Positions 35,901 to 57,812 of a stretch of DNA of 64,000 nucleotides are shown here, piece after piece. The notes beneath the pieces were generated by a model that ran no database searches, was not told the DNA's origin, and saw only the letters and a list, made by a program, of their open reading frames with translations. The stretch is taken from NCBI GenBank assembly GCA_963799675.1, contig CAWCXQ010000003.1, forward strand, positions 12,162-76,161. Direction: 5' to 3'. Made by a program: the position numbers and the translations under genes. The first letter of the stretch is position 1, and the number at the start of each line of letters is the position of its first letter. This DNA is from an uncultured Chloroflexia bacterium (lineage in GTDB: Bacteria; Chloroflexota; Limnocylindria; QHBO01).

Positions 35901-35960
35901 GGTGCGAGCGAAGCAGTCGAAGTGACGTCATCTTCGAGCCTTCGCGCCACCTCATCAGAG

Positions 35961-37029
35961 CTACCTCAGCTGCTCCTCCATCCAGTCCGCGCTCTGCGAG
36001 CGCCAGCGGTAGGCGCGGTTGGTGGCGATGTGATTGCCGTCCTCGATCATCATCAGCTCGACCGGGCCCTTTGCTTCGCGCGCCAGACGCTCGGCGTCCT
36101 TCGCCGGCACGATGCGGTCGAGCCGGCCGTTCACGATGAAAAGCGGGCAGGTGATGTTTTGCGCGACGCCTTCCAGCGACAGCGTCGTCGCGTTCTTGCG
36201 TCGCCTCGTCTTGCGTCTTGCAATGGCTGCGCACGCGGAATGCCTTCGCGCGTCAATTCCGGCAGGTTGTCCCAGTCGGCGCCCCAGTTGAACGGCCCGC
36301 CCAGCGCGATGCAGGCCTTGATGCGCTTGTCGAAGGCGGCGGCGCGCGGCGCGTAATAGCCGCCGAGGCTGACGCCCCACATGCCGATGCGCTTGGCGTC
36401 GAGATCGCGCCGCTTCTCGACGAAATCGATCACGGCCTTCACCGGCACCTCGTAGTCGCCGCGGATGGCGAAAATCGTATTGCGCCTTCGCCCTGGCCGG
36501 GACCTTCGAAGATCAAGCGTCGCGATGCCGCGCGCCAGAAACGGCGCCTCGTAGGCGTCGCCTTCTTCCTTGGTCGAATCGAGGCCGACCGCCATCACGA
36601 CGACCGGCGGCTTTTCGACGCCTGCCGGCTTGCGCAGGATGCCGGCCAGCGTCTTGCCCTGGTAGGGGATCTCGACGCGTTCGCCGGGCGGCCGCAGATA
36701 GGGAAGCGCGCGCCTGCCGGCATTCGATCTCCTTCTTGTGCGCGGCCTTCATCTGCGCCTGGTCGTGCACGAACAGAAACGACGCGAAGTGATAGTAGAC
36801 GCCGGCGCGCTGCAGGCATTCGCCGGCGGTGAGAAATGCGTTTCTCGCGAGCGCCTCGCGGCCGAGCTGCTCGTGATGCGCGGCGCGCGCCGACCAGGCG
36901 CTGCACCACTCGTCGTAGCGACGTGATCGAGCCGGTGACTTCCTCGAAGTCGGTCAGCACCACGCCATTGGCGACGAAGCGCGGGCCCCAATGGGCGATC
37001 GCGGCCTTGAGCCAGGGGTCGGATGACAT
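35961..37029 (-). pseudogene. alpha/beta hydrolase (dienelactone-hydrolase / prolyl-oligopeptidase-like), several frameshifts
   Basis: The start is MSSDPWLKAAIAHWGPRFVANGV. The nucleophile elbow is GMWGVSLGGYYA. The C-terminus is ..CPLFIVNGRLDRIVPAKDAERLAREAKGPVELMMIEDGNH.. The pieces lie in ORFs 36595..37584 (tail), 36513..36770, 36131..36598 and 35961..36380. Confidence 0.75.
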
Positions 37030-37055
37030 GCGAAATTTCCTTGATGCGAGAGAGA

Positions 37056-37892
37056 TCAGTCGGCTCTTTTCGTCGCGGCGATACCAGGGCATGAAGCGCC
37101 GCGTGCCCAGTTCACCAGCAACTCGAAGCCGACGCCGAAGGCGGCCAGCAGCAGCACGCCGACGAAGGCCTCGTTGTGGTGATAGGAGCGCGAATTGTAG
37201 AGGATGTAATAGCCGAGCCCGCCGATCGAGAGGAAGAACTCCGCCACCACCGCGCCGATCAGCGCGCGGCCGGCGGCGAGCCGGAAGCCGGCGAGCAAAT
37301 AGGGCATCGACGCGGGCAGCACGATGTCGATCAGCATGCGCAGGCGGCCGGAGCGGAACGAGCGCGCGACTTCGAGATATTCGCGCGGCACCGAGCGCGC
37401 GCCATCGGCGACGTTGATGATGATGGCGAAGATCGCGGCGAAGATGATGGTGGCGATGCGGGTCGCGCCCGAATAGCCGAACCACAGCGAGAACAGCGGC
37501 AGCACGACGATCATCGGCATGGCGTTGAAGCCGTTGATGTAGTGCGCGGATGCATGCGGTCGACGACGTCGGGCTGCGCCCCATCAGCAGGCCGATGACG
37601 GTGCCGAGCGACGATCGTGATCGCGAGCCCTTCGGCGACGGCGGCGAGCGTGGCGCCGAGCGGCGCTGCAGGAACGCGGGATCGGTGATGCACGCGCGGG
37701 ATCGCCAGCACGCACGGTGCTCGGCTTGGCGACGTAGGCCGGCGCCAGCGCGCGCACCACGAACTTCCCACAGCGAGCAGGATGGCCAGCCCGGTGATCA
37801 AGCCGCGGCAACAAGCGCGCCGCTGCGTCAGGCCGACGCTTGCGGCGTCGGCGCGGCGCGGGATGGCGGCGATGACGGCCGACTTCGATCAT
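37056..37892 (-). pseudogene. ABC transporter permease (NitT/TauT family), frameshifted
   Basis: ORF 37056..37520 carries the EAA-type region ..INVADGARSVPREYLEVARSFRSGRLRMLIDIVLPASMPYLLAGFRLAAGRALIGAVVAEF.. The N-terminal TM pieces are in other frames (37511..37801 and 37584..37892). Confidence 0.8.
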
Positions 37893-38638
37893 CTATTGCC
37901 TCCAGCGCGCGAAATGTTGCTCGATCTTCAGGCCGAGCCGCATCAGGCCGACGCCGATGAGGCCGATGACAAGGATCGAGGCGAACACGCCGCCGGTGTC
38001 GAAGTTCTGCGACGCGCCCATGATCAGCTGGCCGAGGCCGGTCGAGGACAGGAAGAATTCCGCGGCGATCATGCCGACCAGCGCGCGGCCGATCGCCTGG
38101 CGCACGCCGGTCATCATGTAGGGCAGGGTGTAGGGCAGCATCACCTCGCGCCACAGCGCCCATTCGCTCGAGCGAAAGGATTTCGCCACCTCGATCAGCT
38201 CGGGCTTGATGCTGCGCGCGCCTTCCACCGTGTTGTAGAGCACCGGGAACACCGCGAACAGAAACACCACCAGCACCTTGGGCGCAAAGCCGAAGCCCAT
38301 CATCGACAGGATGAACGGGATCAGCGCCACCATCGGCGTGGCATAGAGGATCATGATGTAGGGCTCGATGCCGATGCGCAGCACGCGCACGCGCGCCAGC
38401 AGCAGGCCGAGCGGCGCGCCGACGAGCGAGCGCCAGCACGAAGCCGGTGAGGAACAGCTCGGCCGAATCGAGCAATTGCGCTGAGGAATTCGCCGCGCGA
38501 CGATCAGTTGCCAGAGCCGGACCAGCGTCTCCGAGAACGGCACCATGAAGGCTGCGCTGGTCGATGCGCCCGGCGATCTCCCAGAGCGCAGCCGAGATGC
38601 CGAGCCAGAGCGACGGCGTGAGGCCAGAGCGGTGTCAT
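37893..38638 (-). pseudogene. ABC transporter permease (NitT/TauT family), frameshifted at the 5' part
   Basis: ORF 37893..38546: ..YNTVEGARSIKPELIEVAKSFRSSEWALWREVMLPYTLPYMMTGVRQAIGRALVGMIAAEF.. The putative start MTPLWP at 38638 is in another frame. Confidence 0.8.
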
Positions 38639-38723
38639 CGCCCGCGAACGGCTGATCAGTACGGCGGCACTCGCTAACACGGGATACGCCTCGCTGTCCG
38701 TGGGACCTCGCTGCGGCGTGCGG

Positions 38724-39730
38724 TCACTTCACCATCGCGTTGGCGTCTTTCCAGACGCTGCCGTCGACGAAGTTGTCGTAAGTCACCGGCTCCTTGTCGG
38801 CCTTGATGAGCCGATCTTCTTCATCAGCGCGGCGACCGCCTCGATCTTGTTCCGCGGCATGCCGTCGTCCTTGGCCGCCCAGAAGTCGATGTCGAGAAAC
38901 TCCTTGAGCGCGGCCTTGTTGACCTCTTTGTTGTGGCCGGTGACGGCGGCGGCCTCCGCCACGGCGTCGGCATTCTTCGGGTCCTGCATGAAGCGCGCGG
39001 CCTCGATCATGCCGGCGACCGTGCGCACGATGGCGTCGCGGTTTTTCTCCAGATTGTCCTTGCGCGCGACCAGGATGAGATAGTGGCTGGTCGGATTGGT
39101 GTTCTTCATCGCCAGCAGGATATTGAGCTTCTTGCCCTGGATGCTGGATCTCGGCAAGGTCGTCGAGATGCAGCACGGCATATTGCAGGCGGCCGGCGAG
39201 CAGCGCCGGGCCGGGGCTCGAGCCGAGCGCGACTGCTTGACGTCTTCGATCTTCACGTCCGGGCAGCCGCCGGCGAGCATCGAGCGCAGCGCGACCGAAC
39301 GCGCGCCGTTGATCGAATCGACGCCGACGTCCTGGCCGGCCAGATCCTTGCAGGTCTTGCCCGTCGTCGGTGGTGCCGATCACCCAATCCGGATTGGGCA
39401 TGCCATAGACGGCGACCAGCGGCACGTCGGCATTGGAGACCTGGTTGATGACCGGCGGCGTCGGCGACCACGCCATGTCGACGTCGCCGGCGACCACCGC
39501 GCGCGCCGCGGCGGTGCCGTTGTCGAACGGCTTGATTTCGACGTCGACGCCGTGCTTTTTGAAGAAGCCCTGCTTCTCGGCGACGTAGGCGATCGTGACC
39601 GAAAAGATCGGCGGAATGCCCGGCATTGCCATGACGATTTTCTTGCCTTGCGCCGAGGCCGGTGCGGCGTCGCCAGCAACGTCGCCAGCAGCAGCCCGCC
39701 GGCCGCTGCTGCAATAGTCCTGCGGATCAT
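38724..39730 (-). pseudogene. ABC transporter substrate-binding protein (NMT1/THI5-like, NitT/TauT family), several frameshifts
   Basis: GGAGGA lies upstream of MIRRTIAAAAGGLLLATLLATP (signal). The pieces read ..MAMPGIPPIFSVTIAYVAEKQGFFKKHGVDVEIKPFDNGTAAARAVVAGDVDMAWSPTPPVINQ.. (ORF 38724..39632) and ..NILLAMKNTNPTSHYLILVARKDNLEKNRDAIVRTVAGMIEAARFMQDP.. (ORF 38783..39280). Confidence 0.8.
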
Positions 39731-39771
39731 GGAATCCTCCCTGTAGGCTTCACGATTTTCTTGTTCGGCTT

Positions 39772-40610
39772 TTAGCGTTCGAGATGGAATTCGGCTTCGC
39801 GCGCCTCCCGCATCAGCGTGCCCCAGACGCGCTCGCGCAATTCGGCAAAGCGCGGCTCGCGCAAGCGTCTCGCGCGTGCGCGGCTCCGGCAGGTCGATGG
39901 TGATGGTTTCGTGGATGCTCGACGGCCGGCCCTTGAGCACGATCACGCGATGGCCGAGCAGCACCGCTTCCTCGATCGAGTGCGTGACGAAGACCATGGC
40001 GGTCGGCCGCTGCTCCCAGATGCGCAGCAGTTCGAATTGCAGAATCTCGCGCGTCTGCGCGTCGACCGCCGCGAACGGCTCGTCCATCAGCAGCACGTTC
40101 GGCTCAACCGCCAGCGCGCGCGCAAGGCCGCAGCGCTGCTGCATGCCGCCGGACATCTGATAGGGGAATGCCGTCTCGAAGCCGGTCAAGCCCGACCAGC
40201 TTGATGAACTCCGGCACCTTGCGTTCGATCTCCGCTTTCGATGCGCCGGCCATGCGCAGGCCATAGGCGACGTTCTCGAACACGGTCTTCCACGGGAACA
40301 GGCCGAAGTGCTGGAACACCATGGCGACGCCGGCGATCGGCTCGGTCACGCGCTCGTCGCCGACCCAGATCTCGCCGGCATCGTGCGGCAGCAGGCCGTC
40401 GATGCAGCGCAGCAGCGTGGTCTTGCCGCAGCCGGAAGGCCCGACGATGGCGACGATCTCGCGCTCGCCGACCTCGAAATCGATGTTGCGGAAGACTTCG
40501 AGCGTGCCGTAGTGCTTGCCCAGGCCGTTGACGCGGATGCGTGGCTCGGCGTTTCGCGGCCTGCGAGGCGGGCGCGGATCGCGCGGTGTTGCTGACGTTT
40601 GACTTGTCAC
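39772..40610 (-). pseudogene. ABC transporter ATP-binding protein, one or two frameshifts
   Basis: Walker A is GPSGCGKTT, the signature is MSGGMQQR, and Walker B is LLMDEPF. The pieces are in ORFs 40104..40898 and 39380..40264. The tail ..FAELRERVWGTLMREAREAEFHLER-stop ends at 39772. The GTG start overlaps the upstream stop (GTGA at 40607-40610). Confidence 0.85.
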
Positions 40611-41247
40611 TCGGCGGCCTGTGTTGCGGGTTTGCGGTTGATCTTGGCCCAATAGTCGGCGGCTTGCTTGGAACGCTTGAGCGCGTCCTCGGTCTCGAAG
40701 CCCGGCGCCATCGAGCCGTCGGTGCCGGCGAGAATCTGGTGGTGCTCGATGTTGAGCGTGCGCAGCCAGCGCTGCTGGCCCATCGTGATGGCGACGAAAT
40801 AGCCGATCTCGACCAGCTCGGGCTCGCTGAAGTGCTTGTGCAGCCGCGTCCCACAACTCGTCGGTCGAGCGGCAGATCCCAGGTGATGGCCTCGGCATAG
40901 GCGAGCGCCGCCTTCTGGCGCTCGTCGTAACGCGACGAGGTCTCGAAATTGATCAGGTCGGAATAGTCGTCTTCCTTGAGCCCGGACTTGGCCGCCTTGA
41001 TCGAACGCTGGTTGCCGCAGAATTCGCACAGCACCGAACGCGACACATAGATCCGGCAAAGCTCCTTGATCTTGTGATCGGCGACGCCGTTCTTGAATAC
41101 GTCGCGCCAGGTATTGGCGAACGACCAGAAGGTCGCCGGCACATGGGCGCGAACGGCCTGGCTTTCCGGCCGCGGCGTTCCCTCGCGCGCGCAGCGCTCG
41201 AATTCGGCGAGCATGGCAGGATCTTTGATCGTGCGAAGGATCGACAT
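40607..41247 (-). pseudogene. carboxymuconolactone decarboxylase (AhpD-like) family protein, one frameshift
   Basis: MSILRTIKDPAMLAEFERCAREG...IYVSRSVLCEFCGNQR (CxxC) in ORF 40186..41460 joins ..FSEPELVEIGYFVAITMGQQRWLRTLNI.. in ORF 40607..41389. The shift is near 40860. Confidence 0.75.
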
Positions 41248-41741
41248 AGCTAATGCGAGGTTTCGACATCGGTGTTTCTCCCGGAAGAAAAAGTATCGGC
41301 GCACCGGCTTCGATGCGACCGTGTGGGTCTTGGCGACAGGTGGGCATGTTGCCGCAACACCGCCGCACGGGCAACGCTGGCCGCCGCATTTCGGTAACTC
41401 TGCCTTAGTCTTGACGATCTCCCAACGCGTCGAGGCCGGCGCCCGCACAGTGGGCAACAACCCCGTATTTGCGGCGCCTTTTGCGGTTGCGCGCGCGCAT
41501 TACGCTTAACCGCTGATTACCGGCGCTGACAAGCATTCGCACCAGTATTGTTAATTTCGTGCAAGGTTACTCTAAAGTTTATCGCAGATCGGATACGCGT
41601 CGTAAACGCTACGAATTCATGGGCTCTTCAGCATAGACACAATTGCGACAGTGATTTTAGTAATTCAATACTTCCTCGCCCCTAGTGTTCGTTTGAACAG
41701 ACCGCGGAAGTATTCGGTCGCGTCAAACGGGGCTCATTGTC

Positions 41742-42604
41742 GTGCGTGCCAGTACCATCGTCATGATCGGGTTTGCCGTCGTCTTCGGCTTGCTCGCTGT
41801 GTTCATCGCTCAGGTCTGGCTCAACAACCAGGCGAGCATGCAGGCGAGGAACGCACCGAACAGCCGACGCAGGTGGCGTCGCAGACGGTCGTCGTCGCCA
41901 AGCAGCCGCTGCGCTTCGGCACCGAGCTCAATGCGTCCATGTTGCACGAAGTGCCGTGGCCGTCGACGCGCTGCCGGCGGGCGCCTTCGCAAAAATCAAC
42001 GACGTCATGTCGGGCGGCCGCCGCGTCGTGCTGGCCGCGATTGAAGCCAACGAGCCGGTGCTCGCGCTCAAGATCACCGGCGCCGGTCAGCGCGCGACGC
42101 TGTCCGCGCTCGTCAAGCCGGGCATGAAGGCTGTGACGATCCGCGTCAACGACGTCGAAGGCGTCGGCGGCTTCGTGCTGCCGGGCGATCACGTCGACGT
42201 CGTGCTGACGCGCCAGCTCGAAAAGGGCTCGGCCACAACCGAAGTCGTGCTGCAGAACACGCGCGTGCTCGCGGTCGATCAGATCGCCGATGATCGCGCC
42301 GCCAAGGCGACGGTCGCGAAGTCGGTGACGCTCGAAGTCGACACCGTCGAAGCGCAGAAATTGTGGCTCGCGTCTTCGGTCGGCAGCCTGTCGCTGCTGC
42401 TGCGCAAGGCCGGCGAAACCGCCGAAGACAAAGACGCGCAAGGTCACGCTCAACGATTTGGGGACCAATGAACCGGTCGGCGACAAGGGCGCCACCACGA
42501 CTGTGGTGGTGACGCGCGCGTCGGCCAAGCAGGACTACACCGTGCCGGTCGAGGGACATGATGGGGCCTCGGCGGACACGGAGCGGAGGCGAGCCGCCTG
42601 GTGA
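41742..42604 (+). pseudogene. cpaB: Flp/Tad pilus assembly protein CpaB, frameshifted
   Basis: The GTG start gives MRASTIVMIGFAVVFGLLAVFIAQVWL (TM). The pieces ..VVVAKQPLRFGTELNASMLHEVPWP.. and ..VLAAIEANEPVLALKITGAG...GMKAVTIRVNDVEGVGGFVLPGDHVDVVLT...LQNTRVLAVDQ.. lie in ORFs 41742.., 41651.. and 41773..42471. Confidence 0.85.
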
Positions 42605-42657
42605 CTCCAGGCTTGGGATCATTAAAGGGGTGGGGAGTGTGTCGTGAACAATCAACA

Positions 42658-44216
42658 ATGAAATCGGCGTCGGCTTCCGCTGGCGCGTTGAGGACAGGGC
42701 CACCAAGCGTGGCAATTGGCTGCGCGATCTTGCGATCGCTCTGGTCATCGCCTTGGCTGCATCGATCCTGGGCATGATCGGTGATGCGTATGCGCAGGCG
42801 CCGACGAAGCTGCATCCAGATCAGCGGCAGCAACCGCACGGCCATGGTGACTGGTGCCGATCGGCAAGTCGCAGGACGTGCGCACCGATGCGAGCTTCGT
42901 CGACATCACGGTCGGCGATCCGGAAGTCGCCGACGTCAATCCGCTGACCGACCACACGCTGTCGATCCTCGGCAAGAAGATCGGCACGACGCGCGTGTCG
43001 GTTTACGCCGAAGGCAAGAAGCTGGTCGGCATCTTCGATATCGAGGTGTCTTACGACATCACGCGGCTCAGCAACGAGCTGCAGCGGCGTTTCCCGGGCT
43101 CGCGACATCCAGGCTTCGACGCGTCAACGGCCGCATCATGCTGTCGGGCGAGGTCGCGGATGCTGCCACGCTCGACAAGGCGGTGACCATCGCGCGGCCA
43201 GTTCGGGCCCGAAATCATCAACTCGGTCTCGGTCGATGTCGCCGCAGCAGGTGATGCTGGAAGTGCGCTTCATCGAGATTTCGCGCACGGCCGGCCGCGA
43301 ATTCGGCGTGCAGTGGAACCGGTTCGGCGGCAGCAGCATCGCCAATATCGGTAACCGCGTCGCCGGCGAACAACCTGCCGACTCGACGGCCGAGCCAGCA
43401 ATTCGCCGGCGAAACGGCGGCGGGCGTGCATCTCCGGCGCTTCGCCGTTCGGCTTTCTGGTCGGCCGCATCGTCGGCGAGCGGAGCGACGACCGACGTGA
43501 TGATCAATGCGCTCGAAGCAGAAGGGCATCGCCCGCAGCCTGGCGGAGCCCAACCTGGTTGCGCTGTCGGGCGATACCGCGAGCTTCCTCGCCGGTGGCG
43601 AATATCCGATCCCGGTGTCCGGCGTCGTTCGGCCAGGTGACGGTCGACTACAAGAAATACGGCGTCGGTCTCGCCTTCACGCCGACGGTGCTCGGCCGCG
43701 GCTTGATCAACCTGAAGATCGAGCCGGAAGTGAGCCAGATCGACACCACGCATACGGTCTCGGTCGGCAACGGCGTCTCGGTGCCGGCGCTGATCGTGCG
43801 TCGCGCGTCCACCACGGTCGAGCTGACGCGACGGGCAGAGCTTCGTGATCGGCGGCTTGCTGCAAAACAACAACAAGAACCAGATCGAGCAGCTGCCATG
43901 GCTCGGCAGCGTGCCGGTGCTGGGCGCGTTGTTCTCCAGCAAGTCCTATCAGAAGAACGAGACCGACCTCGCCATCATCGTTACGCCGCGCCTCGTGCGT
44001 CCGGCGCGGCCCGGCGACGTGGTCAAGGCGCCGACCGACGACACCTTGCCGCCGAACGATACCGACTTCTTCCTGCTCGGAAAGATGGAAGTCACGCGGG
44101 AAGAGGCGCGCAAGCTGACGCCCGCTACGGCGCGGGTTGCGGTCGCCGGCGACCGTCCGTTCACCGGGCACATGCTCGACATGCCGAAGGGAGGAATCCA
44201 ATGCGGCAATTCAGTA
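42658..44216 (+). pseudogene. cpaC: Tad pilus secretin CpaC/RcpA, several frameshifts
   Basis: The pieces read ..LPIGKSQDVRTDASFVDITVGDPEVADVNPLTDHTLSILGKKIGTTRVSVY.., VMLEVRFIEISRTAGREFGVQWN, ..SFLAGGEYPIPV.., ..VDYKKYGVGLAFTPTVL.., and ..IGGLLQNNNKNQIEQLPWLGSVPVLGALFSS...ETDLAIIVTPRLV. The start and stop are approximate. Confidence 0.85.
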
Positions 44217-44561
44217 AGGTCATGCGCACTGTCGCGCTTGCCGGCGTTGTTTGCCGTTCTCGGCGGCTGCTCGGAATATCTCGATCGCCGCGACTCCGTC
44301 GCGCTTTCGGGCGGCAATGCGGTTGCGACCAACATCGTGACCCAGACGGTCGATCCTTGGCCGCCCGCGAGCGCCAACCGCAACATCGCGTTCAACGGCC
44401 AGAAGATGGAAACGGCCGTCGAGCGCTATCGCACCAACCGGGTCATTCCGCCGCGCGGAATTGGCACGTCCGGCAGCTACACGGACGGCGGTGGTGGCGG
44501 CCAGAACAGCGCAGGGCCGGTCGGAACCCCTGTAACGGCGCCGGCAGCGGCGGTGAAATAA
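44201..44561 (+). pseudogene. Tad-locus lipoprotein (lipobox LGGC), one frameshift
   Basis: AAGGGAGGA lies upstream of the ATG at 44201. The start MRQFSKVMRTVALA.. is followed after a shift near 44245 by ..LFAVLGGCSEYLDRRDSVALSGGNAVATNIVTQTVDPWPP...AVERYRTNRVIPPRG...-stop at 44561. The family (CpaD-like or DUF3613-like) could not be decided by eye. Confidence 0.55.
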
Positions 44562-44614
44562 ACCTCGGGCAATTGCACCATGCGCATTGGACGGAATTCC
44601 AGCACGAACCGGAC
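44562..44614. other. breakpoint between alphaproteobacterial and Gram-positive-like sequence (chimeric joint)
   Basis: The last alphaproteobacterial stop codon ends at 44561. The first recognisable DnaK residues (VAAKDKATNKEQKVTI) start near 44615. The ~53 nt in between match neither context in any frame that I can recognise. Confidence 0.7.
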
Positions 44615-45086
44615 CCGCGTGGCCGCCAAGGACAAGGCGACCAACAAGGAGCAGAAGGTCACGATCACCGCCTCGTCGATGCTCGCCAAGGAGGATGTGG
44701 ATCAGATGGTCCGCGACGCCGCCGAGCACGCGGAGGAGGACCGAAAGCGGCGTGCCGAGGTCGAGTCCCGAAACGAGGCGGATGCGCTCGTCTTCCAGGC
44801 CGAGCGGCTCCTGAAGGATCTCGACGACAAGATGTCGGACGACGACAAGGCGGATCTCAACTCACGCATGGAGGCGGTCCGCGAGGCTCTCAAGGGGACC
44901 GATGCGGGCGCCATCGACTCCACCAAGCAGCAGCTGGCGGAGGCCCTGCAGCGAGTGGGGACGAAGGCCTACGAGGCGACGCCCGACGGCGGCGACGGCT
45001 CCGCCGGGGGCAATGGCGCCGCTGGCGGTGAGCAGCCCGCCGAGGAGGAAGGCGAGACGATCGAGGGCGAGTACAAGGAGGTCTGA
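44615..45086 (+). pseudogene. dnaK: dnaK, 3'-terminal fragment only (last ~155 codons)
   Basis: ORF 44580..45086: ..VAAKDKATNKEQKVTITASSMLAKEDVDQMVRDAAEHAEEDRKRRAEVESRNEADALVFQAERLLKD...EGEYKEV-stop. This is the Hsp70 lid and C-terminal tail. No ATPase or beta-sandwich domain lies upstream. Confidence 0.85.
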
Positions 45087-45495
45087 TCAGCCCGCCGGCT
45101 GGGGCTGGGTACAGTTCGGGCAGCGGCGAGCCACCAGCGGGATCTCGCTGGCGCACTCGGTGCAGGTCTTGGTGGTCGGCGTCTCCTCGGTCCCGCGCTG
45201 GCGCCGCGCCTCCAGCGCGTTGATCGGCCTCACCACGAAGAAGAAGATCGCCGCGGCGACGAGGATGAAGGCGACCAGGGCGTTGAGGAAGAGGCCGACC
45301 TCGAGGACCGCGCCGCCCGGCGTGGTGATCGCCGAGCTGGCTGAAATCGGGCACGCCGATGAGCCCCAGCAGCGGGGTCAGGATGTTCGCCGTGAACGAG
45401 GTGATGAGCGCACCAAATGCGGCGCCGATGACCACTGCCACGGCCAGGTCGACGACGTTGCCGCGCAGCAAGAACTCGCGAAACTCCTTCAGCAT
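45087..45495 (-). pseudogene. mscL: large-conductance mechanosensitive channel MscL with C-terminal CxxC..CxxC extension, one frameshift
   Basis: [47 protein letters not shown].. is followed after a shift near 45330 by [80 protein letters not shown]-stop (own translation). Confidence 0.85.
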
Positions 45496-45555
45496 CTCCG
45501 CCTCCCGGGGTGTGGCTCAACCCCGCGAGTATAGGTCGGTACACTCACCGGACCG

Positions 45556-46344
45556 ATGCGCCTGGCCACCTGGAACGTCAACTCGCTCAAGGCTCGGCTG
45601 CCCCGCGTCCTGGACTGGCTCGCTTCCGCCCAGCCCGACGTCCTCTGCATGCAGGAGACGAAGCTGACCGATGAGGCCGTGCCGACGCTCGCCTTCCGCG
45701 AGCTCGGCTACGAGGTGATCCACCATGGCCTGGGGCGCTGGAACGGCGTCGCCATCGCATCGAGGATCGGAGCGACCGAGGTCGTGGCCGGGATCGGTCC
45801 TGCGCCGGACGGCTGGACGACGATGGCGGTCGCCTCGTCGCCGCCACCTGCGGCGACGTCCGCGTGGTCAGCATCTACGTCCCCAACGGGCGGGTCGTGG
45901 GCAGCGAGTTCTACGCGGACAAGCTGGCATGGCTCGATCGGCTGGCGGGGTGGGTGGCCGTCGCCGCCGATCTTTCGCAGCCATTCGCGCTGTGCGGCGA
46001 CTTCAACGTCGCCCCCGAAGCCATCGACGTGTGGGACCCCGTCGCGGCGCACGGCGGCACACACGTCTCGGCACCCGAGCGTGAGCGAGTGGCGCTGCTG
46101 CGCGAGCACGGCCTGGTCGACATCGTCCGACAGTTCATCCCGAGGAGGGGTACTTCACGTGGTGGGACTACCGCGCGGGCCACTTTCACAAGAACTTCGG
46201 GATGCGGATCGATCACGTCTACGTCACGCCGCCGCTCGCCGCGCGGGCCGTCGCCGCGGAGCGCGATCGCGACGCGCGCAAGCCGTCCTCGTTCGAGGGG
46301 ATCCCGTCAGACCATGCGCCGCTGGTGGTCGATTTTCGGACTAG
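45556..46344 (+). pseudogene. xthA: exodeoxyribonuclease III, at least two frameshifts
   Basis: The pieces read MRLATWNVNSLKARLPRVLDWLASAQPDVLCMQETK.., ..VSIYVPNGRVVGSEFYADKLAWLDRL...FALCGDFNVAPEAIDVWDP.., and ..MRIDHVYVTPPLA...PSDHAPLVVDF. They lie in ORFs 45556.., 45864.. and 46202... The exact stop is unresolved. Confidence 0.85.
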
Positions 46345-47585
46345 GCGAGGCGGCGCAGCGCAGCGGCGACCTCGCGGCCGACGCGCGTTCGGGGCCAGCT
46401 GACCTGCTCCGCGCCGACGAAGGTCCGATACGCCTCGACCGCATCGCGCAGGGCGGGAATGAACTCCGGGTCCTCCATCGGCGAGAAATGCGGCTCGAAC
46501 CAGACGCCCAGGATCGCCAGCTTCTTCGTCTTTCGGTCGATCCGCGGCTCGATGCGGCCGACGAGCCGCGCGCCGAAGAGGAGCGGAAGGACGTAGTAGC
46601 CCCACTTCCGCCTGGGCTCCGGCACATACACCTCCCACAGGTAGTCGAAGTCCCACAGCGCCCGTAGCAGGCGTCGATCCCAGACCAGCGGGTCGAGCGG
46701 TGCGAGGAAGGTCACCCCCGGCGTGCCGAGCGAGCCGCGGTCCGCGGGTAGCGTCGAGGATCGTCCGCTCGGCCGCAACGATGTAGCGCGGTCCCTTGAG
46801 CGTTTCGACCTCGATCGGCAGCAGCTCGCCCTCCGAAACGAGGCGCTCGGTGCGCCTGACACGCTCAGCCGTGGTGCCGGCGCTGTACATCACCTCGGCC
46901 TGCGTGCCGACCGGCGTGGTCATGCCGGTGGCGCGGAAGCGGCTGAGCAGCGCGCCGCGTCATTCCGTCTTCCTCCGACTCACGGAGCTTCAGCAGCTCG
47001 GCGGGAACCAGCCGCTCCATGAGGTCGTAGTAGCGCCGATTGCCCTCGCGCCGCGAGATGCCGATCCGCCCGCCAACGAACAGGGCCTCCATCACGGCGC
47101 GCGACGCGCGCGGTCGGGGCCCACCACCAGTCGACGGCGTGACCGTGCTCGCTGAAGGCGGCGGTGGAGAGCGGCCCATCGGTCTCGAGACGGCGGAGGA
47201 TCGCCTCGGCCACGTCGGCCTGCTCCTTCAGGATCCCGTTCTGGACCTGCGAGCCCCAGCGCTCCCAGGTGACCCGGTAATGCGGCAGCTCGTGCAGGGG
47301 CACCATGTTCAGGCTCTTGTTGTAGAGCTCGATCAAGCGGCGATCGGGGCCGTACAGCCATTGCTCGCACCACGTGCGCCGATAGCCGGCGATTCGCGCG
47401 TGCAGCACGAGGTCGTGGTTCCTCGCACCGGGAACTTCGAGCGGATCGAACTGCAGGCTGCCCAGCCGTTCGACGACCTCGAGCACCGATTCCGGCGCTG
47501 CCGGCAGCGCGCGTGGCGGCGCGATCAGGTGACGGCGGACGAGGAAGCGGCGAGCATGCTCGGCGGAGATGTGCAGGGGCGGCAT
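46341..47585 (-). pseudogene. winged-helix DNA-binding domain protein (YcaQ/AlkZ-like DNA glycosylase family), several frameshifts
   Basis: The pieces read MPPLHISAEHARRFLVRRHLIAPP...VVERLGSLQFDPLEVPGARNHDLVLHARI.. (ORF 46980..47585) and ..FLAPLDPLVWDRRLLRALWDFDYLWEVYVPEPRRKWGYYVLPLLFGARLVGRIEPRIDRKTKKL.. (ORF 46341..46862). Confidence 0.75.
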
Positions 47586-47613
47586 CGGGCCGGCATCCTA
47601 ACCGAAGCAAATG

Positions 47614-47640
47614 CTGGCACTCTACGGTCGAGAGTGCTAT
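47614..47640. promoter_or_regulatory. CIRCE operator (HrcA binding site) upstream of dnaJ
   Basis: The site is cTgGCACTC-tacggtcga-GAGTGCTAt, against the consensus TTAGCACTC-N9-GAGTGCTAA. It has 3 mismatches and the correct 9-nt spacer, and lies 20 nt upstream of the dnaJ ATG. Confidence 0.75.
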
Positions 47641-47642
47641 TT

Positions 47643-47650
47643 GCTAGAAT
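47643..47650 (+). promoter_or_regulatory. candidate extended -10 element (TGcTAGAAT) for dnaJ
   Basis: TGCTAGAAT ends 9 nt before the ATG at 47660, which would give a leaderless or near-leaderless mRNA. No clear -35 is present, because CIRCE occupies that position. Confidence 0.35.
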
Positions 47651-47659
47651 CCCGCCCCG

Positions 47660-48782
47660 ATGGCCGTGAAGCGTGACTACTACGACGTCCTGGGCGTGCC
47701 GCGCGAGGCGAGCGACGAGCAGATCAAGCGCGCTTTCCGAAAGCTGGCGCAGCAGCACCACCCCGACGTCGACACCAGCGACGGCGCCGACCTGCGCTTC
47801 AAGGAGCTCAACGAGGCGTACCGCGTCCTCTCCGATCGGCAGCGGCGCACGGCCTACGACATGTTCGGCCACGCAGGCGTGGAGGGGCGGAGGCGGGTTC
47901 GAGGGCTTCGGCGGAGGATTCGGGCCGTTTGGCGACATCTTCGACGCCTTCTTCGGCGGCTCGCCAGCGGGGTCGCGCCGCCGGTCCAGAGTGGTGGCGG
48001 GCTCAGACCTTCGCTACAACCTCTCGATCGACTTCGCAGAGGCCGTCTTCGGGGTCACGCGCGAGATCGTCTTCCCGACCCTCGTGCGCTGCCCGGTCTG
48101 CGACGGCGCGGGCGGGGAGCCCGGAACGGAGCCGGAGCGCTGCCCCGAATGCAACGGCAGCGGCGAGCGGCGCCGGGTCGCGCAGACGATCCTCGGTCAG
48201 ATGGTGAACATCGTCGCCTGTCCGCGCTGCAATGGCGAGGGCCAGATCCAATCCGCGCCCTGCCATGAATGCGAGGGCGACGGGAGGATTCGGGAAGAGC
48301 GGCGTCTGCAGGTCAACGTGCCAGCCGGGATCGACGACGGCCAGCGGATCGCAATCGAGGGCCAGGGCGAGGCGGGACCGCGCGGCGGGCCGGCCGGCGA
48401 CCTGTACGTCGTCGTCGGCGTGGGCGAGCATCCCGCGCTCCAGCGCCGCGGTACCGAGCTCTTCCACGAGCTGGCGGTCACCTTCCCGCAGGCCGCGCTG
48501 GGCGCGACTCTGACGGTGCCGACGGTCGAGGGCAGCGAGGAGGTCGAGGTCCGCCCGGGCACCCAGAGCGGAAACGAGATCCGGCTCCGCGGGAAGGGCG
48601 TGCCACGCCTGCGCGGGAGCGGGCGTGGGGACCTGCACGTCATCGTAAACGTGGTGGTGCCTGCGAAGGTCTCCAGGCGCGAGCGCGAGCTCCTCGAGCA
48701 GCTCGGCGAGGTTGCTGCCCCGGCCCAGCTGCCGAAGGGCGGGACTGGCTTCATGGATCGCATCCGCGATCTCTTCTCCTAG
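47660..48782 (+). pseudogene. dnaJ: molecular chaperone DnaJ, one frameshift
   Basis: The J domain [37 protein letters not shown] is in ORF 47660... After a shift near 47883 come the G/F region and four CxxCxGxG motifs ([32 protein letters not shown]) in ORF 47673..48782. Confidence 0.9.
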
Positions 48783-48785
48783 CGC

Positions 48786-49692
48786 GTGCGCTGGCTCGCT
48801 CTCACGGTCGAGGCGGACGTCGAGGCGATCGAGGCGGTCTCCGAGGTCTTCGGCCGGCTGGGCCGAGGGGCTGCGGTGCGGCCCACCCGCCTCCTCCACG
48901 ACGCGAACGACGAGCTCTCCGCACGCGAGGACACGACTGCACCGTACGAGCTGACGGTGCACATTCCCGACGACGACGGAGCCGCCGCGGCAGTCGAGGA
49001 AACGGAACGCGCCCTCTGGCATCTCCAGGCGTTCGGCCTCCGCCCCGTTGGCGGCCTGCAGGTGACCGCGGTGGAGGACTCGGACTGGACCGATGCGTGG
49101 AGGGCCGGCTACAGCCCGCAGCGCATCGGTCGGATCGTCGTCCTTCCTTCCTGGCTGGATGAGCCCGATCCGACCTGGCGAGCTGCTGCTGCGACTGGAT
49201 CCGGGCATGGCATTCGGAACCGGCCTGCACCCGACCACCCGGAGCTGCCTCCGCCTGCTGCAACAGGTGCGGCCGATGCCCCGGTGCTGCTCGACGTCGG
49301 TTCGGGATCCGGGATCCTGTCACTGGCCGGCCTGCTGCTCGGCGCCGAGCGCGCGGTATGCCTCGATACCGATCCCGTGGCCGTCGAAGCGACGCGCTGC
49401 CAATGCCCACGCCAACGGGCTCGGCGACCGCGTCGATGCGCGCGCGGGGAGCCTCCCTGCGCAGGCCACCGAACGCTTTCCGCTGGTCGTGGCCAATCTC
49501 GTGGCGAGCGTCCTCGTCGAGCTGGCGCCCCGCCTCGCCGCGCATGCGGAGAGTGGCGCCACCCTCGTTGCCAGCGGCATCATCGACCATAGGGCCGGCG
49601 AGGTGATCGCCGCATTCGAGCGCGTCGGGCTCCTCGTGCGGGAGCGGATCGACGACGACGAGTGGGTCTCGCTCCGCGCGGAGCGCGCGTGA
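48786..49692 (+). pseudogene. prmA: ribosomal protein L11 methyltransferase, frameshifted
   Basis: The pieces read ..DSDWTDAWRAGYSPQRIGRIVVLPSW.., ..LDPGMAFGTGLHPTTRSCLRLL.., and ..VLLDVGSGSGILSLAG...DTDPVAVEATR.. They are spread over ORFs 48786..49592 and 49093..49692. Confidence 0.8.
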
Positions 49693-50364
49693 ACCGCTTC
49701 TTCGTCGACAGCCTCGCCGCGGACCGGATCCCGCTCCCGGCGGCAGTCGCCCACCAGGTTCGTCGCGTGCTGCGACTGAAGGACGGTGAGCAGGTCGTCC
49801 TGGTGGCCGCCGGCCGCGAGGCGCTCTGCCGCATCGACGGCGACGCCTGCGTGGTCGAGGAGCGACGCCCTTCAGCGGGCGAGGCGCGGCACCGGCTCAC
49901 GGTCTGCCAGGCGCTGCTGAAGGGCGACCATCTGGAGCAGGTGATCCAGCTGGGCACCGAGATCGGCGTCGCGCGCTTTCGGCTCTTTGTCAGCGCCCGG
50001 TGCATCGCCCGCGACCTGGGCGATCATCGGCTCGAGCGCCTGCGCGCGATCGCCCGCGAAGCGGCCGAGCAGTCGGAGCGCGGCATCATTCCGCCGGTCG
50101 ATGCGCCGGTTCCGCTGGCTGACGTGCTCGATCCGGGATCGGTCCTGCTGTACGAGCGGCATGCGGGTCAGCGCCTCTCGGCGATCGAGGCACCCGACCA
50201 GCGTCGTCATCGGTCCGGAGGGCGGCTTCACGCCCGATGAGGTCGCCGCCGCCGAGCGTGCAGGGGCGGTGCTCGCCGGCCTGGGGCCGCGAATCCTCCG
50301 ATCGCGCAGCGTGGCGGCGGCCGTTGCTGCCGTCGTCTTGTCGCGCAGCGGCGACTTCGCCTAG
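49689..50364 (+). pseudogene. rsmE: 16S rRNA (uracil1498-N3)-methyltransferase, one frameshift
   Basis: The GTG start overlaps the prmA stop (GTGA). The sequence VNRFFVDSL...LTVCQALLKGDHLEQVIQLGTEIGV.. is followed after a shift near 50200 by ..VVIGPEGGFTPDEVAAAERAGAVLAGLGPRILRS.. Confidence 0.8.
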
Positions 50365-50373
50365 CCTTGACCG

Positions 50374-50718
50374 ATGAACGCCGAATGCCTCTTCTGCCGG
50401 ATCGCCGCAGGTGAGATTCCGGCCGATGTCGTCCACAGCGACGAGGAGGTGATCGTCTTCCGCGACGTGAACCCGCAGGCACCGACCCACGTGCTGGCCA
50501 TTCCGCGACGCCATGTCGCATCGGCGCACGAGCTGGGGCCTGCAGATGGCGCGCTGCTGGGCGCCCTCTTCGGCGCGTTGCGCGCAACCGCCGATGCCGA
50601 AGGGCTCGGCGACGGCTACCGGATCGTGACCAACGTGGGGCCCGCCGCCGGCCAGAGCGTCGAGCGCCTGCACCTTCACCTGCTGGGCGGACGTCGCCTG
50701 ACCTGGCCGCCCGGATAG
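50374..50718 (+). CDS. histidine triad (HIT) nucleotide-binding protein
   Basis: Intact 114-aa ORF: CLFCRIAAGEIPA...NPQAPTHVLAIPRRH...RLHLHLLGG (HxHxHxx). Confidence 0.85.
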   Translation: MNAECLFCRIAAGEIPADVVHSDEEVIVFRDVNPQAPTHVLAIPRRHVASAHELGPADGALLGALFGALRATADAEGLGDGYRIVTNVGPAAGQSVERLHLHLLGGRRLTWPPG

Positions 50719-50733
50719 CGCTCCCGAACCGGA

Positions 50734-51168
50734 TCAGTCCTCGCCGCGGACCACCCACTCCTCGCGCCAGGCGGGAGCATCGAAGCGCGGTGCCCAGTAC
50801 ACCGTCTCGTGCCTGACGCGTCCGCCGCTGAGCTCCATGAGGTCGACGCACAGGTACGTGACTCCGTCGGGATACGCGACCTCCCACTCGCCGACCCAGA
50901 AATCCCCGTTGCCGGCAATGCGGGCCAGCGTGCCGCTGGGCGTGACCACGAATCGATCCTCGGTTCCGGCGATGCGCGTGATGCGTGATGTGGGGGCGCC
51001 GCCGGGGTAGTTGGAGATGATCTGGCGGTAGGCGTCTTCGTCGACCACCTGCTCCTTCGACTGTGGCCACTCCACCCGCCAGTCAGGGTGCCGCGCGGCC
51101 GCCTGGGCGCTCATGTCGAGCGCCACCGTCGCCTCGACGTAGCGCCGCACCACCTCTTCGTTGGTCAT
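50734..51168 (-). CDS. NTF2-like (SnoaL/ketosteroid-isomerase-like) superfamily protein
   Basis: 144 aa from MTNEEVVRRYVEATVALDMS.. in ORF 50734..51258. The call is by general fold pattern only. Confidence 0.45.
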   Translation of the reverse strand: MTNEEVVRRYVEATVALDMSAQAAARHPDWRVEWPQSKEQVVDEDAYRQIISNYPGGAPTSRITRIAGTEDRFVVTPSGTLARIAGNGDFWVGEWEVAYPDGVTYLCVDLMELSGGRVRHETVYWAPRFDAPAWREEWVVRGED

Positions 51169-51253
51169 CGTCAGCCGATCGCCTCGTTCGGTCCTAATCG
51201 CTGTCGGGATTGTCCCCCCGCTCCGCGGCGCGTCAAGGGCATCTTGGCGCCCG

Positions 51254-51280
51254 TTCAACGTTCTGGCGGCCTGTGGCGTC
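51254..51280 (+). promoter_or_regulatory. candidate ECF-type promoter (TTCAAC-N17-CGTC)
   Basis: AAC and CGTC are separated by 17 nt (ttcAACgttctggcggcctgtggCGTC), and the site ends 8 nt before the sigma-factor ATG. It was recognised by eye only. Confidence 0.3.
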
Positions 51281-51288
51281 GGTACGGT

Positions 51289-51841
51289 ATGACAGTGAGC
51301 CAGATGGCATTCGAGGGCAGCAGCGCGCGGGCGTCCGTCGACTCAGCTGACGTCGACCGCGCCGCGGTGACGGAGCTCGAGGCGGCACGCGGCCGCGAGC
51401 TGCGGGGTTACGCACGGCACCTGGGCTTGACCGAGGACGAGGCGGCGGACGCGGTGCAGGAGGTTCTCCTCCGGCTCTGGGTCACGCTCGACTCGGGCGT
51501 GTCGGTCGTCCAGCCGGAGGCCTGGGCCTTCAAGAGCCTGTATCGGCTCTGCATGGACGCGCACCGATGGCGCCGCCGGGCCCGTGGGCTCACCGACCGG
51601 CTGGGGCTGGGCCTCAGGGTGAGCACCCGGACTGATGCCACCGACCAGATCGCGGTCTGGACCGCGGCCGAGCGGCTGCCGGAGCGCCAGCGGCTCGCGC
51701 TCTATCCTGCGCTACCGCGCCGATCTGCCGTTCGACGAGATCGGCGAGATCCTGGGTGTGGCCGCCGTATCCGCACGCAGCCACGTCAGTCGCGCGCTCG
51801 CGACCCTGCGCGTCGCATTTCACGAGGAGGAAGACCGATGA
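51289..51841 (+). pseudogene. ECF (sigma-70 family) RNA polymerase sigma factor, one frameshift
   Basis: Region 2 is ..DEAADAVQEVLLRLWVTLDS...EAWAFKSLYRLCMDAHR.. in ORF 51088... Region 4 is ..ERQRLALY/LRYRADLPFDEIGEILGVAAVSARSHVSRALATLR.. in ORF 51635..51841. The shift is near 51704. Confidence 0.8.
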
Positions 51842-52610
51842 GCGACAAGCAGATCGAGCGGATCGAGCGCGAGCTCCGCAGCCCTGGGCCGCGCGAGTCC
51901 GCCGAGGGCGGTCGTCAGCTTCCCGGCGACGTTCGCCAGGCGCGGGTCCTCCTCGCGGAGATCGACCGCCGGCGAAATGCCGGGCGGGTGGTCGTGCGCG
52001 CCACGGCCGTTGGGCTGGTCGCCGCGGCAGCGGTCGCAGTTGCGATCGTGATCGGCGCGGTACCGCCACGTGGCATCGAGCCCGGCGCGAGCGCGACGCC
52101 GCAACCGACCGTCGCCACGACGCCCTCCGCCGCTGCGACGCCGGGCGGCAGCCAGGCAGCATCGGTCTGTGATCCCGCCAACCTCCAGGCGGTGGCCGAG
52201 CGCTGGGGCGCGGCGGCGGGGAGTCGGGGACCACGATCCATGTCACCGTGGTGAGCGGGCCGGACTGTGTCCTGCAGGGTCACCCCGGGGCGCGCATTCT
52301 CGCCGGCGACAGCTCGGTGGTGATCACCAGCAGCGATCGCGCGAACCGTGCAACCGGTCAGCCGTGGGCGGACCCCGGCGACCCGCCAATCGCCGTCACC
52401 AAGGGCGGCGCTGGCACAACCGTCAGCGTGGTGTGGAGCAACTGGTGCGCGGCATATCCAGCCGGACCGCAGCTTGATCTGCAGCTCAGGCTGGCAGTGG
52501 ACGGTCCGCAGATGCCGGTCGCGACCGCAGGCGGCGATGCGATCCCGGTCCCACCATGCAATGGCGCCGGCGAGCCGAGCAGCCTCGGCACCAACGCGTT
52601 TGGAAGCTGA
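51838..52610 (+). pseudogene. single-TM anti-sigma-like protein with extracytoplasmic DUF4232-type Cys domain, one frameshift
   Basis: There is an ATGA overlap with the sigma gene, and GGAGGA lies upstream. After MSDKQIERIEREL comes the TM VVVRATAVGLVAAAAVAVAIVIGAV. The extracytoplasmic part reads ..SVCDPANLQAVAERWGAAAGS/TTIHVTVVSGPDCVLQGHPGARIL...VVWSNWC...PPCNG.. Confidence 0.65.
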
Positions 52611-52782
52611 TCCTGCTCTAGGCGGCCCTCGGACGCTGGTTGACGGGGTAGTAGATAGCGCCCGCGAAGTTGCCGCTCAGGATCCTTCAACCGAACGTGC
52701 CTTGCGCCGCCAGCCTCGTACCTGGAGATATTCTCTGGGAGCGACCGAAGGATTCATCGCCCGCCGAGCGACTAACTTGCCG

Positions 52783-53334
52783 ATGACTATCCGAGCAGAT
52801 CTGAGCGGAGAGGCGGACAACCTGAACGCCATCGTGGCGGATCAGGCCGCCTTCCGAGTGTGGTACGAGCTCGCGCTGCCGCGCGTGTATCGATACCTGC
52901 TGGCCCGCTGTGGAGGTGACTCGGATCTCGCGGAGGAGCTGACGCAGCAGACCTTCGTTGAAGCCGTGCGACGACGGGCGAGCTTCGACGGCCGCTCCGA
53001 CGCGGTCACCTGGCTGTGTGGCATCGGCCGCCACAAGCTGATCGACCACTACCGTCGGGCCGGACGAGACAGCCAGCGTCAGCTCCGCATCGTCTCCGAG
53101 TGGTCCGCCGGACAGTCCCAAGCGTGGTCGCAGCACGCGCTGCAGTCCGGCGTGCAGTCGGCGCTGGCCGAGCTTCACGGCGAGCAGCGGATCGTGATGG
53201 TCCTTCGATACCTCGACCAGATGCCGGTCCGCGAGATCGCCACCACCATCGGTCGCTCCGAGAAGGCGACCGAGTCACTCCTCTCTCGAGCACGCGAAGC
53301 CTTCCGTAAGGCATACGGAGCCACTAACTCATGA
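52783..53334 (+). CDS. ECF RNA polymerase sigma factor
   Basis: Intact, 183 aa from MTIRADLSG inside ORF 52348..53334. Region 2 reads ..LAEELTQQTFVEAVRRRASF...TWLCGIGRHKLIDHYR.. Region 4 reads ..EQRIVMVLRYLDQMPVREIATTIGRSEKATESLLSRAREAF.. Confidence 0.85.
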   Translation: MTIRADLSGEADNLNAIVADQAAFRVWYELALPRVYRYLLARCGGDSDLAEELTQQTFVEAVRRRASFDGRSDAVTWLCGIGRHKLIDHYRRAGRDSQRQLRIVSEWSAGQSQAWSQHALQSGVQSALAELHGEQRIVMVLRYLDQMPVREIATTIGRSEKATESLLSRAREAFRKAYGATNS

Positions 53335-54804: not shown

Positions 54805-54858
54805 CGTAACGCACGACTGCGGGTCCGCCCCAGCGCAACGGGGGCTCGGCAACGCTCG

Positions 54859-54887
54859 TTGACCCGCCTGGGGGCCGCTGCTAGACT
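54859..54887 (+). promoter_or_regulatory. sigma-70/SigA-type promoter for rpsU (TTGACC-N17-TAGACT)
   Basis: The -35 is TTGACC (54859-54864), the spacer is exactly 17 nt, and the -10 is TAGACT (54882-54887). It lies ~65 nt upstream of the rpsU start. Confidence 0.55.
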
Positions 54888-54953
54888 CCGCGGGCTTGTG
54901 TGCCGGGCGCAGGGTCACGGCACGATGACGAGAGCAGGAAGGAGGCGAGACGT

Positions 54954-55130: not shown

Positions 55131-55201
55131 GAACGCCAGACGCTCCCTCACAAAAAGGCGGAGACCAGACCAATGCCTTCCGCCCGCATGAATTGCCTGC
55201 C

Positions 55202-55648: not shown

Positions 55649-55658
55649 GCGACCGGCA

Positions 55659-57779: not shown

Positions 57780-57812
57780 GTCGCGCCGCCGGGTCGCCTA
57801 CGATGGCCGGGC

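Follow-up and report, generated by a model that had tools for sequence, protein, structure and literature searches.

Joints at which two unrelated stretches of DNA share a short homology arise in vitro, when a polymerase switches templates or when short overhangs anneal in a repair or amplification step, as well as in vivo, through illegitimate recombination. Trigodet et al. (bioRxiv 10.1101/2025.04.22.649783) described contigs that join different phyla in the output of metaFlye, metaMDBG and hifiasm-meta. They note that abrupt shifts in GC content, coverage and gene-level taxonomy give such chimeras away, and report frame-breaking indels without read support alongside them (bioRxiv 10.1101/2025.04.22.649783).

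The window, i.e. the whole stretch of DNA that was analysed (64,000 nucleotides), contained a joint of this kind. The deposited 450,738-bp metagenome contig is very probably an inter-phylum chimera, produced by an error-prone, probably long-read, assembly. A chromosome stretch of a soil alphaproteobacterium of the Xanthobacteraceae (Pseudolabrys-like) would have been joined, at positions 44618-44623 of the window, to a chromosome stretch of a soil Chloroflexota bacterium (Ca. Limnocylindria), and this joint is most likely an assembly error and not biology. The features concerned are the following.

1..44617, no strand: left segment, Xanthobacteraceae/Pseudolabrys-type chromosome, based on gene order and identity to native contigs
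24000..50400 (approximate), no strand: zone rich in frame-breaking indels on both sides of the joint, based on indel counts versus intact relatives and on a GC3-phase hidden Markov model (HMM)
41742..42471, plus strand: cpaB/rcpC (Pfam RcpC, E = 4.9e-31), with frameshifts at ~41861 and ~41965
42640..44216 (approximate, mapped from L003 8464-10017), plus strand: cpaC secretin, split across frames, with ~20 single-base indels
44201..44561, plus strand: Tad-locus lipoprotein, disrupted by a single frameshift at ~44246 (relatives: 119 aa); stop codon TAA at 44559-44561
44580..44623, plus strand: start of cpaE, consisting of the ATG and the first 13-15 codons (MRIGRNSSTNRTRVA), the rest of the gene being missing
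44580..45086, plus strand: fusion ORF of 168 aa (identical to P0001), with the cpaE N-terminus in frame with the DnaK C-terminus
44618..44623, no strand: joint, CGTGGC, common to both lineages; left alignments stop at 44623 and right alignments start at 44618
44618..45086, plus strand: 3' fragment of a Limnocylindria dnaK, encoding the lid and C-terminal tail, ~155 codons plus stop
44618..64000, no strand: right segment, Ca. Limnocylindria (Chloroflexota) chromosome, 19.4 kb in the gene order of native genomes
45087..45495, minus strand: mscL, matching Pfam MscL positions 1-55 of 123 only, with a frameshift at ~45332
47614..47640, plus strand: CIRCE-like inverted repeat upstream of dnaJ, with three mismatches (one match in the window, 0 in 100 shuffles)
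47660..48782, plus strand: dnaJ, its J domain separated from the remainder by a frameshift at ~47890

A first line of evidence comes from the relatives of both flanks, ten of which (six left, four right, all independent) were aligned to the window to set the breakpoint. The alignment of all six left-lineage contigs (L003-L008, from ENA and JGI assemblies) ended at 44623; five of these (L003-L007) continue past the breakpoint for a further 2.4 to ~10 kb, into cpaE, cpaF, tadB and tadC, and L008 reaches its own end inside cpaE. The alignment of a seventh left-lineage contig that was fetched (L002) ended at window position 44613, which is the end of that contig itself. Similarly, the alignment of all four right-lineage contigs (L001, L012, L026 and L169) started at 44618, each of them carrying between 139 and more than 2000 nt of upstream dnaK beyond the breakpoint. 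Native genomes of each lineage run straight through this point, and the joint cuts one gene on each side, namely cpaE after ~15 codons and dnaK, which is entered ~155 codons before its stop. A three-way alignment revealed that the two parent lineages have the hexanucleotide CGTGGC (44618-44623) in common, so that the window reads ...ACCGGACCCG from the left parent, then CGTGGC, and then CGCCAAGGAC... from the right parent. Neither a run of N nor a linker was found at the joint, and the whole window is free of N.

The original prediction had placed an abrupt joint at 44562-44620, immediately after the lipoprotein stop codon. The joint is indeed real and abrupt, but it lies at the right edge of that interval, and positions 44562-44617 consist of a left-lineage spacer and cpaE codons. 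The TAA codon of the lipoprotein gene is followed by an 18-nt spacer and by the cpaE ATG at 44580. L005 and L006 have the very same peptide, MRIGRNSSTNRTRVA, at the N-terminus of their 411-aa CpaE; among the left-lineage relatives, in which cpaE codes for 398-411 aa, the 411-aa form starts with MRIGRN(S/P)STNRTRVAVLTADAEF. A complete Tad/Flp locus (cpaB-cpaC-lipoprotein-cpaE-cpaF-tadB-tadC) is not present in the window, as only 13-15 codons of cpaE remain and cpaF is absent; the relatives carry both genes right after the lipoprotein gene, where they had been expected. The end of the lipoprotein gene at 44561 and the appearance of the DnaK lid and tail ~55 nt further on were likewise found as predicted, both from the ORFs and from the HSP70 profile (positions 480-598 of 599).

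A second line of evidence concerns sequence composition. A likelihood change-point, obtained by training one Markov model on each far end of the window, lies at 44647, within 30 nt of the joint. The GC content amounts to 0.62-0.66 on the left (~0.64) versus 0.69-0.71 on the right (~0.70), GC3 is 0.764 versus 0.874, and the switch in the tetranucleotide profile falls in the 42-46 kb interval, so that all three measures proposed for checking the joint change across it. The by-eye impression that the right side is richer in GAG, CTC and GGG was borne out by codon counts, with 22.7 versus 69.0 GAG, 25.8 versus 46.0 CTC and 9.7 versus 19.2 GGG per 1000 codons on the left and on the right, respectively. 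The composition of the right segment displays no drift towards that of the left side.

Thirdly, the two flanks differ in their best-matching taxa, as had been anticipated, and both could be assigned more narrowly than before. The left flank, taken earlier for a Bradyrhizobiaceae-type chromosome, is of a Xanthobacteraceae, Pseudolabrys-like type, judging from contig matches and from the names of homologues; the homologues of the lipoprotein (90-94% identical) are named Pseudolabrys sp., Xanthobacteraceae bacterium and Rhizobiales bacterium. The left segment has the same gene order as L003-L008, with 86-89% nucleotide identity over 34129-44623. Four contigs from soil metagenomes (L089-L092), compared over 5.4-27.1 kb of the window, were 85-91% identical over 5393-27147 with conservation of gene order, the lowest values being those of L092 (84.9-87.7%). 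Pfam matches on the left comprise a TctC receptor, GGT, the large NAD-GDH, purH, RsmB, gpsA, adenylosuccinate lyase, an acetyl-CoA synthetase-type AMP-binding enzyme, cpaB and cpaC, and an ABC transporter is also among the genes of this side. The latter two Tad genes are intact in relatives (278-279 aa for cpaB and 517 aa for cpaC); in the window, the T2SS-T3SS_pil_N and Secretin domains of cpaC match separate ORF fragments. No left-lineage ORF matches occurred beyond 44640.

The right flank, described earlier as Gram-positive-like and of a Bacillus, Actinobacteria or Chloroflexi type, was narrowed down to the Chloroflexota, class Ca. Limnocylindria, by the pgpH loci and the DnaK matches. The intact 706-aa PgpH was searched against 185,579 species-representative genomes. 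The best 80 loci belong to Ca. Limnocylindria, Limnocylindrales and other Chloroflexota metagenome-assembled genomes, with four exceptions (three labelled Steroidobacteraceae and one Pleomorphomonadaceae) and one locus without a taxon name; among these 80 loci, the best match had 87% amino acid identity and most had 58-68%. The ORFs of the pgpH-bearing native loci match the window from 44574 to 63998 in the same order, which is dnaK'-mscL-xth-alkZ-like-(CIRCE)-dnaJ-prmA-rsmE-ECF modules-pgpH-ybeY-amt-ECF. The right segment is 94.8-99.2% identical at the nucleotide level to free-standing Limnocylindria contigs, the highest value being that of L170 (a Logan contig, run ERR11596054) over 57083-59736, and it reaches the end of the window at 64000, where the gene order is still that of Limnocylindria. 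The CIRCE operator reported for this side was recovered as the repeat at 47614-47640 before dnaJ. The J domain of the latter gene lies in ORF 47660-48268 and its DnaJ_C domain and Zn-finger lie in ORF 47673-48782, the site of the frameshift being backed by 13 loci; mscL is intact in L001 (135 aa). Many of the nearest right-lineage genome bins originate from the Nanopore/Flye Microflora Danica long-read catalogue; a similar origin of the window contig is plausible on this basis, but a guess.

A fourth line of evidence is the density of frame-breaking indels, which was used as a substitute for read depth. Genes that are split across frames or that give only partial domain matches include cpaB, cpaC, the lipoprotein gene, mscL, xth, the alkZ-like gene, dnaJ, prmA, rsmE, amt, GGT, purH and NAD-GDH. 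Indels with a length that is not a multiple of three were counted against intact short-read relatives. For nucleotide counts, only references with at least 85% identity were used, and frame switches at the protein level were taken otherwise; counting with references of 65-75% identity was rejected as too noisy, due to compensating alignment gaps. The counts of frame-breaking indels and the frequencies of same-strand phase switches in the GC3-phase HMM were as follows.

Indels, 5-24 kb (reference L089-L091): ~0.5-1.5 per kb
Indels, 24-27 kb (reference L090, L091): rising
Indels, 34.2-44.6 kb (reference L003): 87 in ~9.5 kb of coding sequence, ~9 per kb
Indels, last 1.55 kb left of the joint (reference L003): 17, mostly insertions, ~11 per kb
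Indels, first 1.55 kb right of the joint (reference L001): 4 (1 insertion and 3 deletions), 2.6 per kb
Indels, 57.1-59.7 kb (reference L170): 2 gaps in 2.65 kb, ~0.75 per kb
Phase switches, intact relatives: 0.26-0.55 per kb
Phase switches, window 0-20 kb: 0.3-0.4 per kb
Phase switches, window 30-44.6 kb: 1.2-1.4 per kb
Phase switches, window 44.6-49.6 kb: 1.6 per kb
Phase switches, window beyond 49.6 kb: 0.2-0.8 per kb

Frameshift sites found with multiple relatives numbered, per 2 kb of the left segment, 0-3 (0-24 kb), 3-4 (24-28 kb) and 3-6 (34-44 kb); on the right, ~12 such sites occurred in 44.6-50.4 kb and ~6 in 50.4-64 kb. Both these protein-level sites and the phase switches are in line with the indel counts. 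Compared with L003, the 91 indels in the genes of the 34.2-44.6 kb region comprised 74 insertions and 17 deletions and were not associated with homopolymers. Substitution divergence from one JGI contig was ~10% in the clean and in the poor parts of the left segment alike, indicating that both parts represent one lineage and differ in indel load only. At the joint, the error rate and the balance between insertions and deletions shift abruptly, from insertion-biased to deletion-biased. This step probably reflects thin read support and a read depth that differs between the two sides, a reading weakened somewhat by the unequal divergence of the references (88% identical on the left and 95% on the right). 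Naming the sequencing platform from the error pattern was attempted as well and dropped, as insertions outside homopolymers did not identify one.

Taken together, an abrupt change in composition and codon usage, a switch in taxonomy and the continuation of both parents through the breakpoint coincide at one point. In addition, the junction is not reproduced elsewhere: the fused ORF was found on one contig, and the junction 26-mer CCGGACCCGCGTGGCCGCCAAGGACA had 0 matches in the 185,579 species-representative genomes and in 241 million JGI metagenome records. Based on its indel load and size, the contig would have been built from error-prone, probably long, reads. Very few of these may have supported the contig around the joint, which would explain an indel density near that of raw reads. 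The zone of poor consensus may thus be the place where low-coverage assembly ends of two populations became connected, whether through a chimeric DNA molecule or read or through an erroneous join of the assembler; a chimeric molecule could have formed in vitro, for instance by annealing at the short shared stretch or by template switching of a polymerase. If the populations on the two sides had been sequenced to unequal depth, the rate and type of errors would be expected to change just where the taxonomy does. An overlap of at least 6 nt occurred in only 0.27% of 400,000 simulated random joins between the left and right lineages. This points to a join directed by the short shared stretch, unlike a blunt ligation or unsplit reads.

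This overlap also bears on the possibility that the two stretches were concatenated end to end after assembly, by scaffolding, bin merging or a file error of the depositor, with no read across the joint. Such a concatenation would explain an abrupt joint with genes cut on both sides, as well as an error density that is high towards the joint on either side, as at low-coverage contig ends. However, plain end-joining does not merge shared ends and would give the 6-nt overlap only by chance (0.27%), and the N run or linker that could mark it is lacking, making this explanation improbable.

Slightly less probable still is a real, very recent inter-phylum transfer of at least 19 kb of Limnocylindria core chromosome into the cpaE gene of a Xanthobacteraceae bacterium. 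Such a transfer would have proceeded, with an equally small probability, by illegitimate recombination at the 6-bp CGTGGC and been caught before compositional drift. Microhomology-mediated illegitimate recombination leaves joints with a short overlap such as this one. An overlap expected by chance in 0.27% of joins therefore speaks for a transfer and is the main reason why a small probability is kept for a real event; it does not separate artefact from biology, since the in vitro and the in vivo routes both yield such joints. Furthermore, related contigs of both lineages occur in one ENA series (ERZ2724-ERZ2725...), which makes their co-occurrence plausible. Against a transfer, the block contains the single-copy housekeeping genes dnaJ, prmA, rsmE, ybeY and pgpH in their native order, it is entered through a truncated dnaK with destruction of cpaE, it has fully kept the composition of the donor (GC3 of 0.87 versus 0.76), and its identity to free-standing contigs of Limnocylindria reaches 99.2%. 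Signs of a mobile element were not encountered either. Neither an integrase nor a transposase or transfer gene was present among the right-segment ORFs scanned with Pfam, a subset of the ORFs, all matches being housekeeping or ECF sigma domains. The tRNA scan found no tRNA gene at the joint, the only ones in the window being located at 2581 and 29293, and a repeat search around the joint found only short flanking repeats at chance level. The lack of any other occurrence of the junction 26-mer in the genome and metagenome collections searched points in the same direction. Finally, one genome with one read depth would not be expected to show the change in consensus error rate and error type seen here.

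As to the chimeric assembly favoured here, its imprint on the gene annotation can be followed in the dnaK fragment. The frame from 44619 reads VAAKDKATNKEQKVTITASS...EGEYKEV-stop, with the stop at 45086, and covers positions 480-598 only of the 599-position Pfam profile. It is 95% identical to P0002, and its close matches are named Ca. Limnocylindria bacterium. The native loci encode a full-length DnaK, with 656-681 codons between stops, of which only the part from residues ~490-504 onward aligns to the window. The N-terminal nucleotide-binding domain and the beta-sandwich substrate-binding domain needed for a functional DnaK are absent, the Tad locus occupying the region upstream of 44618. 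The DnaK piece had been said to have no start context, which proved incorrect, as the cpaE ATG at 44580 is in frame with it and the resulting 168-aa ORF, MRIGRNSSTNRTRVAAKDKATNKEQKVTITASS...EGEYKEV, is called as a gene in the public record. As an in-frame fusion of cpaE and dnaK has a one-in-three chance, its being in frame carries no weight as evidence. This cpaE'-'dnaK ORF is best regarded as an annotation by-product with no biological role. The 490-aa ORF 43559-45031, which spans the joint and had been dismissed as noise, is out of frame for the most part; its first ~290 nt, however, represent the genuine cpaC frame, displaced by frameshifts. Two other readings of the dnaK fragment were considered. 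A natural stand-alone DnaK lid gene was rejected, as the missing part of dnaK lies immediately upstream in relatives. A general in-frame stop in Limnocylindria dnaK, to which the many matches of ~201 aa could have pointed, was rejected as well: L001 has a TAG at a codon where 13 relatives have Ser, and P0002, the other 201-aa match that was looked up, is cut by the end of its contig.

The fusion ORF is 100% identical to the public protein P0001 (168 aa), and NCBI and ENA place this protein, MRIGRNSSTNRTRVAAKDKATNKEQ..., on one contig of 450,738 bp. A contig of this length also carries left-side ORFs of the window, namely RsmB (485 aa), a purH fragment (311 aa), a cpaC/lipoprotein frameshift fusion (238 aa) and NAD-GDH truncated to 1377 aa (1602 aa in relatives), as well as the right-side ORFs PgpH (706 aa) and YbeY (194 aa). 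Since the fused ORF and ORFs from both sides, truncated ones among them, are in the public record, the joint and the frameshifts are present in the deposit. A splice introduced while preparing the 64-kb window and absent from any record, for which the abruptness of the joint and nothing further would speak, is hardly conceivable and was discarded, as public protein records contain the exact junction-spanning 168-aa ORF and, on a contig of the same 450,738 bp, ORFs of both sides, frameshift-truncated ones included. The original prediction of a chimeric contig or an artificial concatenation instead of a horizontally acquired island is strongly, if indirectly, supported for the chimeric contig, in view of the two flanks and of the lack of island signs, and fails for a concatenation made when the window was cut.

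The importance of the joint concerns data quality, not biology. Any genome bin with the 450,738-bp contig would be contaminated, which would affect the taxonomy and completeness figures of the bin, inferences on gene content and claims of horizontal transfer. Protein collections already contain the fused 168-aa 'Hsp70' ORF, along with many products truncated by frameshifts. Methodologically, aligning the relatives of both parents pins the breakpoint to a few bases in a read-free manner, and the local density of frame-breaking indels offers a rough stand-in for read depth. A real joint would represent a striking transfer of core genes between phyla, but the evidence is against this.

Several known systems resemble the present case in part. 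Like truncated or stand-alone Hsp70 lid-domain proteins, the fusion ORF encodes only the helical lid and the acidic tail; unlike these, it is a piece of an ordinary full-length dnaK that obtained its start codon from cpaE, and it is not a member of a gene family. As in a genomic island or integrative element, a block of foreign composition starts abruptly inside a host gene; however, an integrase (among the ORFs scanned), a tRNA target, a direct repeat and accessory cargo are lacking here, and the block consists of another phylum's core chromosome in native order and starts partway through dnaK. MDA typically yields inverted joins inside a single molecule, unlike the present joint, which links two genomes. 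Nevertheless, in vitro chimeras in general (MDA, PCR and repair-step artefacts) have in common with it a short shared stretch exactly at the junction of unrelated templates. The likeness extends further for the long-read assembly chimeras of Trigodet et al. (bioRxiv 10.1101/2025.04.22.649783), which also show one seamless two-phylum breakpoint in a long contig, a shift in GC content and gene-level taxonomy, and reading frames broken by indels nearby. Those chimeras were demonstrated by read clipping and coverage, in place of which a consensus-error measure was used here, and the shared 6 nt at the breakpoint are, as far as described there, particular to the present case. The present contig fits their description on every feature tested.

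Single-base indels were dense in window positions 24000-50400, where many genes were broken, and were scattered elsewhere in the window too. On the left side, which is of Xanthobacteraceae type, insertions predominated and lay outside homopolymers. The genes affected, among others, were the following:

Genes broken by indels: cpaB, cpaC, mscL, xth, dnaJ, prmA, amt, GGT, purH, and NAD-GDH

Indel-truncated products were found in public protein collections, as is the case for an NAD-GDH of 1377 aa, compared with 1602 aa in relatives. Within the left segment, a local GC peak (0.69-0.73) occurred at 25000-29000, of which the tetranucleotide profile remained left-like despite the high GC, and many gaps were present at 26-27 kb in the alignments to relatives. 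The same segment contained an intergenic palindromic element of about 90 nt (22370-22459) that matched, in both orientations, an element located elsewhere in left-lineage relatives (positions 80-172 of the relative contig L003). It may represent a dispersed REP-like repeat of this Xanthobacteraceae lineage.

In the right, Limnocylindria segment, an inverted repeat was retrieved upstream of dnaJ:

47614-47640: CIRCE-like inverted repeat, CTGGCACTC-N9-GAGTGCTAT, 20 nt upstream of dnaJ

This repeat differed from the consensus by three mismatches, and no such repeat was expected by chance. When the segment was compared with the native Limnocylindria locus L012, two stretches (50714-54859 and 59341-63520) showed no match at the nucleotide level. 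The first, which contains ECF sigma modules together with an ORF of 427 aa without a Pfam hit, was without a match in loci L017 and L026 as well; the second was partly matched in both, over amt (approximately 59.3-60.8 kb). These stretches look like variable insertions in an otherwise conserved gene order.

The dnaK gene of the close right-lineage relative L001 (ENA ERZ27257236 k141_1285013) was called as two pieces because of an in-frame TAG (positions 321-323), at a site occupied by a serine codon (TCG or AGC) in 13 other Limnocylindria loci. Either a nonsense polymorphism or an error in the assembly could account for this TAG. Another right-lineage contig, L169 from JGI, breaks at most 12 nt from this site. 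Lastly, four Limnocylindria-type pgpH loci (L023, L068, L069, and L087) occurred in publicly deposited bins that carry the label Steroidobacteraceae or Pleomorphomonadaceae, which suggests that other deposits hold mis-binned or chimeric contigs too.
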